NCBI GenBank assembly: GCA_036339995.1
Contig: JAYYZW010000039.1
Location: 35,852-99,851 of the forward strand
Direction of reading: 5' to 3'
Source of the DNA: Pseudomonadota bacterium
Lineage (GTDB): Bacteria > Pseudomonadota > Gammaproteobacteria > Ga0077536
DNA: 64,000 nucleotides
Shown piece by piece: positions 42,001 to 51,000 of this stretch. The position numbers were made by a program. Position 1 is the first letter of the stretch. Each line of letters opens with the position of its first letter.

Positions 42001-45000
42001 AGGGAACCAGCCCGGCGACGAAATCCGCGCGCGATTGCATGGCCGCAGCGCAAAAAGCATCGACGACCTGAGGTTCGAGCAGCGCATGATCACCGACCGT
42101 AATCAAGGCGGGATAACGGCCTAATTGGTCTACGGCTGAGAGCGCGCTCGCCGAAGGCCCGTGCGCGGGTTCGATCCAGTGAAAATCCCCTGTCCCAATG
42201 AGCGATTGCATCACCGCGTCCGTTTCGACGACCGCCGCCGCCGGACCGACGATGACGCCCCCCGAAATCACCGCGCTTGCCCTGAGCGTCGTGATGACGC
42301 GTTCGATGCAGGACCGGCCCGCCACCGGAATCAGCACGCCGGCCGCCTTTCCATGTTCGAGCGCGAATCGATTGACGCCGGGTCGCTCGCCAGCCAATAC
42401 GATTGCGCACATGTCGTCTGTCGGCGCAGACATCGAGCTAGGCGATGTTTTTTTCGTAGATGCGATAACGCTTGGAGACGTACCCACCGAGCGATTCAAT
42501 CATGTTTTTCATCGCTTCGTTGTCCTCGAGGATCCACGACATCTCGACCTCTTCAAGGCCCTTTCTGAGCCCGGGCGGCTGCAGCGCAAGCACGACGGAC
42601 AGGGCAAGCCCGGGTCCAAGACGTGTATTGTGAAGTTTTTTGCGTACGCCCATCAGCGGAATTCGTGCCGTGCGCGGGTAGTTGATCTTCAATCGGTGAA
42701 TGAGCTTCGCCCAACCGAAGGGCAACAGGCGGCCATTCAAGTCCCGGATCGCCTCGTTCAGGTTCGGCAGGAGAACAATGAACGCAAGCGCCTCGTCGTC
42801 CATCTCGGCAATCTGTATGAAATCGTGGGGGATAAGCATCAGCATCTCACGGCCGATCGCGCGAAATTCACCTTGGGAAAACGGCACAAAGCCCCAGTTG
42901 TCGGACCATGCGTCATTGAATATTTCGCGCATCTTCTCGAGGTCTTCGTTCGTGTGTTTGCGCCGCAACGGCCGTATATGGATGCGTTTTCGCAAACGTT
43001 CGATCAGTGAGGCGAGTGCCGGCGGCGGTTTGAATTTCGAGCTGATCAGATAGGCGAAAACGTCCATCGCCTTGCCGTAGCCCGCGCGTTCGATACTGGT
43101 GCCGTAGTAGGGCCGTGCGTGACCCATCAAGAAATAGGGCGGTGTATCGAAACCTTCGACCAGCACGCCGACTTCCTGGTTGATATTGAGGGAAAACGGT
43201 CCGCGCGCGCGCCGCATGCCGCGTGCGAAGAGCCAGGATTCAGCCTCATTAAACAAGGCTTCGAATACCGCACGGTCGTCACAGGCATCTAAGAATCCGA
43301 AGAAACCCGTGCCGTCCTTGTACCGTTCGAGGTGGAACTGGTCGATCTGTGCCGAGATTCGGCCGACCGGCGCGCCGTCTCGGTAGGCGACCCACGCCTG
43401 CCATTCGAGATGTCCGAACACCGCCTGTTTCGGCGACAGCGCGTCTTTTCTCTCAATCAACAGCGGCGGTACCCAATGGGGGTCGTCGCGAAAGACACTC
43501 CACGGCACGCGAATAAATTCATCCAGACGGCGCGCGTCATTGACGGGTTCAACGGAAACGGGAGCGGTTTGAATCGAATTCATCGGCGCCTGCATGTTAG
43601 CCAAGTCTAACAAGTGGATAAACCGCTACCCGAGGCGAACCACGCCTCTCGCAGCGGCCTTGACTCGCTACCGGTTAGAGTCTTACCGTTATTAAATAAT
43701 AATTCATACAGCGGAACTATTAGAACGCCCGCCAGGAGGTGCTTCTACGCGAAGGGGCCGACCTTCTCGTCTTTTGGGAGCAACCGCGGCGGCGTCATGG
43801 AGGAACTTGAATGGCTAGACAACCTCACGCCAATCCCGGTACGGCGCTGCAGAAAGATCATTCCTTTGCAGCGGTCGACGATTATGACACGCGGATGTAC
43901 ATCCTGCCGCATCTTGAGGAGAAGGCTTCGCGCGACGCGATCATCGCCGAACACCGCAAGGCCCCTCGGGGCGCGGCGACCCAGGCAGGCGAAGCGGCCC
44001 CTTTGAACAGTCTGCCGCTCAAGCGCCTCCTCGACAAGCTGCGCGTGATACCGCAAACGGGCAAGCACACCATCGTCGAAACAAAGCCCTGGAAGGAATA
44101 CACCATCGGTGTCCTGCCCGGACGACGAGGCGGGGTGGTCGAACTGACCGGCGAGATCTACCCGACGCGCGAAGATGCCGAACACGCGATCTTCCTCAAA
44201 CGCTTGAAGGCGCTCTGCGAGCACTATGGCATCGACATGGAGGTATAGACGATGACCGACACGCAATCCTGCATGCTCAGAATCACAGGCTACTCTGATC
44301 GCTTCTCGGCTCGGCCTGGCGACTCCGTCCGGTTCCACATCAACGCAGAGCAGAACGAATCCTTCGAAGCGGAAATCGTCCGGCTCATTCACGGCGACAC
44401 GAATCCGCAGGGCCCCGGTTTCAAGGAGGAATTGATCGCCTCGCCGCTGAGCGGTACGCATCAAGGCAAACACCAGCCATTGCATGCCGGCAGCTACGTC
44501 ATGGTGCCGCACTCGAAGCGTTTCGATGTTCAGAGCTTTACCCTTTGTGCCTATGTCTATCCGACGACGCCCCTCACCGATACCGAGGGCGTCGCCGTCG
44601 GTACGCAGGGCATACTCACCAAGTGGAACGCTACGGAACAGACCGGTTACGGCCTGTTCATCAACGATGCCGGGGAGCTCTGCCTGAAGCTCGGTCCAGG
44701 CAACGGCCGGGTCGAAGAAATCTCCACCGGCAAGCCGCTCTTTCGCAAAGTCTGGTACAAGGTTGCGGCGAGTTACGATGCAAGATCGGGCGCCGTGTAC
44801 GTTTCGCAAAAAGCTGCCGTCACCAACACCAACGCCGGGCACGGCATGAGCATGCTACACCCCCTTGAAGACACCGATGCGTCGGTCGCGACCACGCTTG
44901 CGGGCGCCGCGCCCGCCGCCAACGACTGCCCGTTCCTGATGGCGGCCAGCACCTTGAAGACTCACTCGGGCCGGTCCATCGGCGGTGCTCATTTCAAGGA

Positions 45001-48000: not shown

Positions 48001-51000
48001 CTTCACTTTGCAGGCTTTCATCTTTCCAACCACACCGGACAAAGGTGTGCAGGGGATCCTGACAAAGTGGGTGGGTCCGCGAAAGAGCGGCTACGGTATG
48101 TTTGTTGACGAGAAGGCTTGCCTGGCCTGCTGGATCGGCGACGGCAAGGGCAAGGTCGCGACGGTCTCGAGCGGCAAGGCGCTCATGCGCAAGGTTTGGT
48201 ATCTGGCAGCCGTGTCCTACGACTCGAAATCCGGGCGGGTGCGCGTTTATCAGCAGCCTGTCGTGACGCCGACCAACGGCGGCCTCGGCCTGTCGATGTT
48301 GCATCCCGCCTCGCAGACCGCCGCCGCAGTCACGCGTACGGCCCGGGTCAAACCGGCAAAAAACGATGCGCCGTTATTGATGGCGGCGAACACCCTGCGC
48401 GCCCGGTGCGGCCGCCACCTGCAGGGCGCGCATTACGCCGAGGCTAAGGAACCGTTTCCGCTGCCCGAGCAGGAAAACGTCTACAACGGCAAGATCGACC
48501 GCCCGCGCCTCGCTAACCGTGCCCTGGACAAGGACGAGATCGACGCTTTAGCGCGCGGTTTCGCGAGTTGCGAGTCCGAGCTGCGGGGCGCCGTCGTCGG
48601 CGCCTGGGATTTCCACGCCAACATCAGCGACAACATCGCGTCCTGCCAAATCATCGATACTTCGCCGAACAAGCTGAGCGGCTTCGCCGTCAATCTGCCG
48701 GTGCGCGCAATGACCGGCTACAACTGGACCAGCGATGAGATCGTTTTTCATCACCGGCCGGAAGAATACGGCGCCATCCATTTCCACGACGACGACATCG
48801 ACGACGCACGCTGGGCAGCGAGCTTTGCCTACACGATTCCCAAGGGTCTCAAGAGCGGCGTCTACGGTGCTCGCCTGCGCATCGCTGGCAAGAGCACGCC
48901 GGAGACGGAGGATTATGTGCCCTTCTTTGTGCGTCCGCCGCATGGTAAGACCACGGCCAAGGTCTGTCTGATCATTCCGACCAACAGCTACCTGGCCTAC
49001 TCGAACGACAACCTCGCGACCAACTCGGTCGTCGCAGAACTCCTGTCCGGACGCGTCCCGATCATGCAGGCCTCGGATCTGTATTTGAACGAGCATCGCG
49101 AGTATGGCCTGTCGACTTATTCATTGCATTCCGACGGCAGCGGCGTGTGCTATTCCACGCGCCTGCGCCCGATCCTGAACATGCGGCCCAAGTACCGCCA
49201 CTGGCTGTCGCCGTCGCTGTGGCAGCTCAATGCGGATCTGCATCTCACGGACTGGCTAGAAATGAGGGGTATCGCCTTCGACGTGCACACCGACGAAGAC
49301 CTCGATCGCGAAGGTGTGGATCTCCTGAACCGCTATCCGGTAGTCCTGACGGGCAGCCATCCCGAGTACTCCTCGGAGAACATGCTCATTGCATACGAGG
49401 CCTACCAGCAGGCCGGCGGGCGCTGGATCTATCTCGGCGCCGATGGTTTCTACTGGGTCTCTCAGTACCATCCGGACAACAGCAACATCATCGAAGTGCG
49501 CAAGGGCGAGGCGGGCACCCGCGCCTGGACCGCCAACCCGGGCGAATACCACAACGCCTTCGACGGCAAGTTCGGCGGCATGTGGCGCGCGCGCGGGCGT
49601 GTTCCAACGAAGGTCTGCGGGCTCACGTTCACCGCTTACGGCTTCGACGTGTCGACCTATTACCGCCGCGAACCCGATTCGAAGCGCAAGGAATGCGCCT
49701 GGATCTTCGAAGGCGTCAGCTATGACGAGATCATCGGCGACTTCGGCCTCGTCGGTGGCGGCGCCGCCGGTCTCGAAATCGATCGCTACGATCTCGAGTT
49801 CGGCACGCCTCACGAAGCGTTCCTCCTCGCGCGCTCGGAAGGTCATACCGATCTCATGTTGCAGGTCAACGAGGAGATCCACTTTGCCGTACGCGGCTAT
49901 TACGGCGGGGGCGATGAGAACCCGATGGTGCGTGCCGACATGATCTACTACAAGACACCGAACGACGGCGCGCTCTTCGCGCCCGGCTCACTCGCCTGGT
50001 GCGGCGCCTTGTCTCATAACAAATACCGGAACAACGTCTCGAAGATCCTGGAGAACGTCATCAGGGGTTTCATGAAAACCGGGCCGCTCCCATAGGCGGC
50101 GATCGGCTGCTAGCGATGAACAAGACCCGCGGCTCGCATATGCCGTTCATCAGGCCGCCCGTTGGCAAACACGTCGTGCCGACCCGCGACGTGCCGATGT
50201 CGGGCCTGGAGACCCGGATCCTGGAGGATCTCGATCCGGATAAATTGAGCGACCTCGCTGAGGTTCTGTTTGCCTTCAACAATTACCGGGTGGGCCCCAT
50301 GCCCGGCTTCTTCGTCGCCGTCGTAGTCACGCCGGGAAAAGAGTGGTGCGTGGGCCAGCTCTGCGCCGACCGCGCAAAGCCCCTGAAGCTTTTCGATAAA
50401 AAGATTTACAAGACGGCCACCGGCGCCCAGAAAGCGGCCGTGCGGATGCGGGCGAAAGATCTGGAAGCATTTAGGCCTGGCTGAGAAAAATGACGCCAGT
50501 TCGCGCGCAAGCGCGCTCCTTCAGTTGCCTCCGATTCACACCGTGCCCCCGTAGGAGCGCGCTTGCGCGCGAACCATATTCTTCGCGTCAATCATTTGCC
50601 CCTATCGCCAGCTCTTCGAGCACCGAATCGATCACCGATTGCGTCTGCGCGGCCGCTCCCGAATCGTAAGTTGTGGGCTCCGAGTGGTTATCGAACCAGT
50701 GGCCGGCATTCCGCAGTGATACGAACTCGACGTCAGCGCCGGCGGTAGCAAGGGCTTCAGCACGCGCCCGGCACTCGCGTGGATCCGTGATGACGTCCGC
50801 CGTGCCGTGAAAGATGACGGTTTTGACCGACTGCGGAAATCCATCTTCGCCTGTCAACGAACCGAAGCCGCAGTACGGGTAGAAAAAAAACGCGGCGACA
50901 ATATTTGAGAGTTCTAAATCGGGCATCGTCGACAGGTTCGGCGGCGTCCTAGCGGTTTCGGCGAGGGTCATGAAGTCCATGCCGCTCCAGCCGCCATGCG

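Follow-up and report, generated by a model that had tools for sequence, protein, structure and literature searches.

The 64,000-nt stretch of DNA analysed here (the window, from contig JAYYZW010000039.1 of a metagenome-assembled genome named "Pseudomonadota bacterium") carries two consecutive three-gene cassettes, each encoding a small protein (A), a large protein of the N,N-dimethylformamidase (DMFase) family (L) and a second small protein (B). We find that this DMFase-family enzyme has a hitherto undescribed third partner, B, which is conserved and old, and that the arrangement is widespread and not peculiar to the genome of the window. Judged by profile and sequence comparisons, B is a truncated, fast-evolving paralogue of the DMFase alpha subunit, and it is called alpha' here. 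We favour, with reasonable though far from full confidence, a reading in which two paralogous isozymes are encoded here, each a three-component (alpha-beta-alpha') mononuclear-iron amidohydrolase of the DMFase family, with alpha' as a stoichiometric subunit and a small N-substituted amide as the substrate.

Knowledge of DMFase comes from a few isolates that degrade solvents and from a single structure, whose authors noted folds without evident evolutionary context and pointed out that N,N-dimethylformamide (DMF) is not a known natural product (PMC7686228). The characterised enzyme is encoded by two genes, for alpha and beta, and assembles as alpha2beta2 or (alpha2beta2)2, whereas each cassette of the window has the conserved third gene B. 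Literature searches yielded no paper on a third DMFase subunit.

Gene content, catalytic residues and the two types

The two cassettes consist of the following genes:

43811..44248, + strand: A1, DMFase alpha (small) subunit, type 1, 145 aa (phmmer and profile match to 6LVB_B)
44252..46666, + strand: L1, DMFase beta (large, catalytic) subunit, type 1, 804 aa (match to 6LVB_A, Pfam)
46674..47099, + strand: B1, putative alpha' subunit, type 1, 141 aa (divergent alpha paralogue; 132 bits with the hidden Markov model, HMM, of the B family)
47267..47674, + strand: A2, DMFase alpha subunit, type 2, 135 aa
47738..50095, + strand: L2, DMFase beta subunit, type 2, 785 aa (Pfam DMFA2_C, 310 bits, and Laminin_G_3)
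50116..50484, + strand: B2, putative alpha' subunit, type 2, 122 aa

All six same-strand open reading frames (ORFs) listed in an earlier, sequence-only reading of this DNA are present on the plus strand, as A1-L1-B1 (43811-47099) and A2-L2-B2 (47267-50484). Against ENA contig L001, the nearest relative, each of the six gave a ratio of nonsynonymous to synonymous substitution rates (dN/dS) within 0.06-0.15. All of them, B1 (0.15) and B2 (0.12) included, thus evolve under purifying selection and are real genes, not chance ORFs. The longest ORF for B1 starts at 46650 and encodes 149 aa; the 141-aa form starting at the ATG at 46674 corresponds to NCBI MEE2982509.1. The NCBI records for the window proteins (MEE2982508-MEE2982512, locus tags VX929_043xx) label L1 and L2 as DMFase-beta-family proteins, A2 as "inner-membrane translocator" and B1 and B2 as "hypothetical protein". 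The same reading had described the cassettes as diverged paralogous pairs, which is in good agreement with BLASTP: L1 and L2 are 58% identical over 797 aa (E = 0), A1 and A2 are 40% identical (E = 1e-33), and B1 and B2 are 42% identical over 69 aa only (E = 2e-19).

Its assignment of the large proteins to the DMFase beta family was likewise upheld. Residues 10-804 of L1 align to residues 5-760 of 6LVB_A, the large subunit of the Paracoccus DMFase (E = 1e-179), and both L1 and L2 contain the Pfam domain PF20254 (DMFA2_C; 292 bits and 310 bits, respectively) as well as the LamG-like domain PF13385 (Laminin_G_3). Identity to the beta subunit of the characterised DmfA1-DmfA2 enzymes of Paracoccus sp. 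DMF and P. aminophilus (PDB 6LVB, 6LVC and 6LVV; PMC7686228) is about 43%.

The catalytic residues were located with P. aminophilus DmfA2 as the residue ruler, the numbering of which agrees with the published S395, Y399, Y440, H519 and E521. In the characterised enzyme Y399, Y440 and E521 are the iron ligands, as assigned by mutagenesis and structure, while H519, E657 and N547 are catalytic, the Ala mutant of each being inactive; N547, inactive as N547A, is the proposed oxyanion stabiliser (PMC7686228). We compared these positions across the 79 best genome loci, contig L001, seven plasmid loci and the window, which together hold 90 large-subunit genes, and classed the ORFs of these loci with HMMs built from alignments of A, B and L. 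The Tyr-Tyr-Glu ligands, which the sequence-only reading had put forward as a check on the family assignment, are kept in L1 and L2; together with H519 and E657 they are invariant in all 90 large subunits, and F693 is kept in 86 of them, L1 included.

Position 547 is more variable. It is Asn in DmfA2 and in all type-1 proteins (the types are described below), including L1, and Asp in 34 of the 90 large subunits, among them L2. The carriers of Asp are almost all of type 2, SAR11 genes included, and type 2 contains both residues. The N547D exchange in L2 and many other type-2 enzymes may change how the oxyanion is handled or which substrate charge is accepted, but as Asn and Asp are both found inside type 2 it is possibly tolerated and not decisive. 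The enzymes of the two types probably have different substrates or kinetics.

The same division into two types is seen in A, L and B, with 25 trios of type 1 and 43 of type 2. Mean identities within and between types are 73-78% and 58% for L, 62-64% and 39% for A, and 46-51% and 28% for B, respectively, and the pairwise identities of the three proteins correlate with r = 0.90-0.94. It follows from the shared two-way split and this correlation that the trio predates the separation of type 1 and type 2 and has evolved as a unit.

Each type also occurs without the other. Type 1 is found alone in Roseobacter weihaiensis H9 and on plasmid pcAMD1 of Aminobacter niigataensis MD1, both of them cultured hosts, and type 2 alone in Pelagibacteraceae single-cell genomes, Arenicellales and Pseudothioglobus. 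In about ten loci the two types are neighbours, in varying arrangement: type 1 precedes type 2 in the window, L001, L002, L036 and L043, the order is reversed in L009 and L010, the cassettes are divergent in L012, and other genes lie between them in L032. As each type stands alone elsewhere and the order varies, we interpret the window as an instance of a recurrent juxtaposition of two ancient isozyme cassettes, and a recent local tandem duplication is ruled out on the same grounds. Thus, where the cassettes had been read as an old tandem duplication with both copies maintained, their age and maintenance are supported by the type split and the dN/dS values, but a local tandem origin is not.

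A strong ribosome-binding site had been claimed for each gene. Clear GGAGG-type sites were seen for A1 (GGAGGA, 6 nt ahead of the ATG), A2 and L2, but not for B1 and B2, which start 7 nt and 20 nt past the stop codon of L, respectively, neither with a clear Shine-Dalgarno sequence. These distances fit translational coupling better than a strong ribosome-binding site of their own.

Kinship and distribution of the third gene

Comparison with DmfA1, as proposed in the sequence-only reading, identified A as a DmfA1-type small subunit. A1 matches 6LVB_B in phmmer (E = 3.9e-5), the A-family profile does so at 1.2e-10, and the A1 orthologue in L001 carries Pfam PF26354 (DMF_alpha) in its precomputed annotation. 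Precomputed annotation also places most B homologues in PF26354, and the match is weak for the B1 and B2 orthologues in L001. When the alignments of B (31 sequences) and A (29 sequences) were compared using hhalign, they matched with 96.7% probability (E = 4e-10, 62 columns), and B aligns to the core region of alpha in 6lvb_B. Neither A nor B had a match in NCBIfam or in our local Pfam-A, a copy without PF26354, and searches of the PDB sequences with B1 (phmmer) and with the B-family profile gave nothing significant. The third partner proposed earlier is indeed absent from the characterised DMFase loci, but it is not unrelated to the known subunits, being a truncated paralogue of alpha.

The models of A and B have a helix, a three-stranded sheet and a C-terminal helix in common. 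A long N-terminal helical hairpin (H11-30 and H32-44) is seen in the A model alone; the B model is disordered at its start and has two short helices instead. In the Paracoccus structure, alpha inserts its N-terminal helix as a wedge between the two beta subunits and contacts domain II with its N-terminal residues; it also stabilises beta and contributes to the substrate entrance (PMC7686228). The N-terminus of type-1 B carries a D-x-F-W-W-(V/I)-H-P motif (46674-46760 in B1) that has no counterpart in type-2 B; the FWW(V/I)HP motif of B1 is also present in P0353, P0355 and P0359. Within a library of 1.84 billion proteins, clustering at 50% leaves 69 representatives of the B family. None of these is a natural fusion with A or L, and longer B proteins differ only by low-complexity tails. 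The idea that B is a decaying pseudogene copy of A is ruled out by the dN/dS values of 0.12-0.15 and by its conservation across Alpha- and Gammaproteobacteria.

The large-subunit family contains 2,557 proteins at E <= 1e-10 and is encoded in at least 571 species-representative genomes. B lies directly downstream of L in 71 of the 90 large-subunit genes surveyed, so that the linkage suspected from the window alone recurs in other genomes. In 33 of these 71 pairs the start of B overlaps the stop of L by 4 or 1 nt. A is located upstream of L in 56 pairs and downstream of B (L-B-A) in 12, and B adjoins L even where A has moved; in the remaining 3 pairs A was undetected, which is mostly explained by contig or locus ends. 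Among the 71 pairs, B without A was not seen on complete contigs, whereas loci with A and L only are common. The trio is common among aquatic bacteria, SAR11 single-cell genomes included, and the clade extends widely over uncultured members of such communities and Binatia.

A-L pairs without B form a Binatia-centred type-1 subclade, which includes some Alphaproteobacteria and is 61-67% identical to L1. The same arrangement is found in L078 and in all more distant relatives examined (the characterised-type loci on P. aminophilus pAMI2 and Methylobacterium DM1 pLVM1, and those of pAMI5, Halalkalicoccus and Rhodococcus). The statement that B is not part of the described enzyme agrees with this distribution: the canonical dmf loci have the order LuxR-A-L, and a six-frame search at E <= 1 found no B in them, while in the window each beta gene is followed by an additional gene derived from alpha. 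A DmfR-type regulator adjoins the pAMI2, pLVM1 and pcAMD1 loci, and no LuxR-type gene is found beside the window cassettes.

One setting of a trio outside the window is a plasmid. On pcAMD1 (OX341519; L083, 467-4889) a type-1 LuxR-A-L-B cassette encodes an L that is 69% identical to L1. It has the same A-L-B order as the window, with a 4-nt overlap of L and B, but is a single cassette where the window has two, and it sits on a 21.6-kb plasmid, flanked by insertion sequences (IS) and with a DmfR-like regulator ahead. An uncharacterised LuxR-A-L-B cassette is also present on a second A. niigataensis plasmid (CP132959), and the genome paper of strain MD1 does not mention the one on pcAMD1. MD1 is a cultured methylotroph and metformin degrader and would be a convenient experimental system for the trio.

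A second setting is the flotillin-associated rhodopsin (FAR) cluster of Pelagibacterales, HIMB59 and Pseudothioglobus, for which "N,N-dimethylformamidase" and "inner membrane translocator" have been listed by their database names (PMC10308929). The FAR-cluster loci contain type-2 trios (A-L-B or L-B-A) akin to the second cassette of the window, with L 72-77% identical to L2. Public records give the "inner membrane translocator" label to alpha homologues. The nearest relatives of the window enzymes carry an alpha-derived third gene under the public label "hypothetical protein", and the true alpha is often mislabelled.

The Agrobacterium tumefaciens plasmid pAt (L087, NZ_CP042276.1) encodes a beta homologue 41% identical to L2, with an alpha domain ahead and no B. 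This alpha domain is part of a 552-aa LivM-type ABC permease (L087, 1278-2936), the last 87 residues of which match the alpha profile (61 bits, E = 3e-18). The fusion may tether the amidase to an importer, and it probably explains the "inner-membrane translocator" label on free alpha proteins, A2 of the window included.

A possible role of alpha' in the enzyme

B follows beta, often with a start-stop overlap, is not found without alpha and has diversified together with both subunits, suggesting that alpha' is a stoichiometric accessory subunit. The lack of B-only loci and the loss of the wedge helices suggest in addition that it does not replace alpha. In the mechanism we propose, beta, in which the 2-Tyr-1-Glu Fe(III) site is complete and the catalytic His and Glu are in place, would be the catalytic subunit, and alpha would be the canonical small subunit. 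Alpha' would have arisen by duplication of alpha, keeping the core of helix, three-stranded sheet and C-terminal helix and losing the N-terminal helical hairpin. It would be synthesised right after beta, often by translational coupling, and would bind beta or alpha through the retained core as an accessory subunit without substituting for alpha. The predicted complex would hydrolyse a small N-substituted amide, the most likely substrate class, to an acid and an amine. Here and in some other genomes, a gamma-glutamyl ligase resembling glutamine synthetase (GS-like) and a module similar to the N-methylglutamate pathway may take up the released amine. Should alpha' prove to be a real subunit, expressing and assaying these abundant environmental enzymes from A and L alone may fail or mislead.

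Several observations weigh against this proposal. The characterised DMFase is active as alpha2beta2 without B (PMC7686228), and in the Binatia/Alphaproteobacteria sister clade A and L alone suffice, indicating that B is dispensable for the scaffold. Only three beta positions separate the clades with and without B (V448, L511 and N600, L1 numbering), which is too few for a docking surface to be visible. Membership of B in the enzyme complex is thus far a prediction from sequence.

A bolder version, which we put forward tentatively and consider clearly less probable, is that alpha' marks a distinct, obligately three-component branch that is the ancestral natural form in aquatic bacteria such as SAR11, Pseudothioglobus, Arenicellales, Roseobacter and others. 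Alpha' would then remodel the entrance or the oligomer, and the two-subunit solvent DMFases would be derived. The substrate would be a natural small N-alkyl or N-acyl amide, and the primary amine would feed gamma-glutamylation and one-carbon (C1) pathways.

Two other roles for B appear unlikely to us, and about equally so. One is that B is an alternative small subunit competing with A for the site on beta, resulting in alpha-beta and alpha'-beta forms of different specificity or regulation. B could in principle use the same beta surface, as it has retained from alpha the region aligning to the 6lvb_B core. A substitute should, however, sometimes stand alone, and no L-B pair on a complete contig lacks A, although A-only loci are frequent. 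B is also without the N-terminal hairpin, the helix of which wedges between the beta subunits in Paracoccus.

The other is that B acts only transiently, in assembling the strained Fe(III) site or inserting its iron, and remains outside the mature enzyme. This would be in accordance with its small size and with B being the fastest evolving of the three proteins (46-51% identity within types, against 62-64% for A and 73-78% for L), and type-2 B proteins share a conserved WCVGQLCADR motif with two Cys. Both Cys are missing in type-1 B, however, including B1, where the counterpart reads WAVGQLRAD, so that B has no universal metal-binding motif. The tight overlap of B and L further suggests equimolar synthesis, and the Fe site assembles in enzymes that have no B (PMC7686228).

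Least probable, in our view, is a true DMF-degradation cluster of the dmfA1A2 kind known from Paracoccus and Methylobacterium, in which B would be an expendable passenger: the pcAMD1 trio does resemble canonical dmf loci in layout, lying behind a DmfR-like LuxR regulator, IS-flanked and on the plasmid of a methylotroph, but in the window the large subunits share only about 43% identity with canonical DmfA2, no LuxR regulator adjoins the cassettes, and B is under purifying selection. Furthermore, the clade extends through uncultured aquatic bacteria, SAR11 single-cell genomes and Binatia among them, and DmfA proteins of Alpha- and Gammaproteobacteria have been detected in open-ocean metaproteomes from the central Pacific, a setting in which selection by an industrial solvent is unlikely.

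Neighbourhood, substrate and other features of the locus

Two genes of the window recur beside trios in other genomes:

54509..55372, - strand: PhyH-family Fe/2-oxoglutarate dioxygenase (Pfam PhyH; recurrent trio neighbour)
59292..60782, + strand: GS-like ligase (Pfam Gln-synt_C; recurrent trio neighbour)

The PhyH protein is 54-57% identical to the trio-adjacent PhyH proteins in L007, L058 and L077, and its cluster was found in 10 loci. The GS-like protein is 65.5% identical to that encoded next to the trio in L077; its cluster occurs in 7 loci including the window, the others being L009, L010, L032, L050, L070 and L077. GOGAT-like pieces flank the trios in L050 and L055. The association of amine genes with the trio is therefore real in a minority of loci, and it would fit an amine product that becomes gamma-glutamylated. 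The PhyH gene is a possible functional associate of the trio, and the GS-like ligase a possible consumer of the released amine.

GmaS and the N-methylglutamate pathway serve the use of methylamine. By analogy, the substrate in this genome may reasonably be guessed to be an N-methyl amide that releases methylamine. A second known system bears on the substrate range: N-acetyl-(R)-beta-phenylalanine acylase (PDB 8HUY, 8I59 and 8I5A) belongs to the DMFA2_C superfamily, and residues 263-800 of L1 match it with E = 8e-120. The acylase 8HUY acts on a bulky N-acetyl amino acid, is deposited as a single kind of chain without a small subunit, and is more distant from L1 in its N-terminal part. Its presence in the superfamily shows that the DMFase scaffold also hydrolyses N-acyl amines besides formamides.

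The substrate assignment is weak. The GS-like protein scores under every NCBIfam equivalog cut-off (298 bits with TIGR03105, which has a cut-off of 470 bits). The block of GS-like and GOGAT-like genes lies 9-13 kb from the cassettes and is not at that place in L001. Finally, most type-2 trios lie in the FAR cluster, unlike the trio of the window. Knowing the trio makes the question of its natural substrate and its role in marine nitrogen and C1 turnover directly testable.

Beyond PhyH, the region 55417-63924 encodes a protein of glutathione-dependent formaldehyde activation (GFA), an AgcS-type carrier, an FAD oxidase, the GS-like protein, a class-II GATase, a GXGXG protein and an FMN GltB-like protein. 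The domain set at 57881-63924 resembles that of the N-methylglutamate pathway, with every NCBIfam match far below the equivalog cut-off. L001 is the closest relative, with large subunits 95-97% identical to those of the window, and its synteny with the window stops after PhyH, from which it follows that the locus has no fixed tie to the methylamine-type block. The neighbourhood rich in methylated-amine genes that had been described for the cassettes is thus not conserved as a block in L001, although orthologues of its PhyH and GS-like genes do adjoin trios elsewhere. Between the cassettes and PhyH lie genes for a DLH-family hydrolase, a glutaredoxin-rhodanese protein, an esterase and an unknown protein. 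Upstream, a divergent block of four minus-strand genes at 40025-43613 encodes an NTP transferase, a member of the Asp/Arg beta-hydroxylase family, an NTP transferase of the MobA-like kind and a protein of 391 aa without a family match; apart from the window, just L001 and L002, its closest relatives, have this block beside the cassettes.

The FAR-cluster loci (L040-L074, e.g., L053 1577-12000) have a different content, namely rhodopsin, flotillin, a 129-aa unknown protein, an alpha/beta hydrolase, an SSF symporter, Fe-ADH and MBL, and their hosts include Pelagibacteraceae, Arenicellales, Pseudothioglobus and others. None of the FAR-cluster genes is present in the window.

Two non-coding elements accompany the cassettes:

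47100..47266, no strand: AT-rich spacer of 167 bp separating the cassettes (sequence reading)
50499..50574, no strand: long perfect hairpin, REP-like, between the convergent B2 and DLH-family genes

The spacer might possibly hold a promoter for the second cassette; consensus scans found no sigma-70-like or terminator-like site in it. The sigma-70 promoter scan of the whole locus gave no sites, and the terminator-like sites detected were nearly all within coding sequence. The hairpin after B2 is a perfect inverted repeat of about 21-22 bp with a predicted energy of -56 kcal/mol in a 106-nt context, and its arm sequence recurs with 1-3 mismatches in intergenic positions at 14258-14278 and 25624-25644. 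It looks like a repetitive extragenic palindromic (REP)-like element that doubles as a terminator and likely marks the end of the operon. An Rfam scan found no riboswitch in the leaders, the sole matches being sub-threshold miRNA families on this hairpin, and a megablast search of the locus against plasmids gave no match.

The glutaredoxin and rhodanese domains downstream of the cassettes are encoded in one 308-aa ORF at 51512-52438, while L001 has two overlapping genes (229 and 92 aa) at this place; either the window contains a fusion or L001 a frameshift. Further upstream, at 18663-22569, the window encodes an 815-aa fusion of an FAD oxidoreductase and a GcvT-type aminomethyltransferase, similar to dimethylglycine and sarcosine dehydrogenases; the next gene encodes an omega-aminotransferase, which scores 686 bits as a match to the AptA equivalog.

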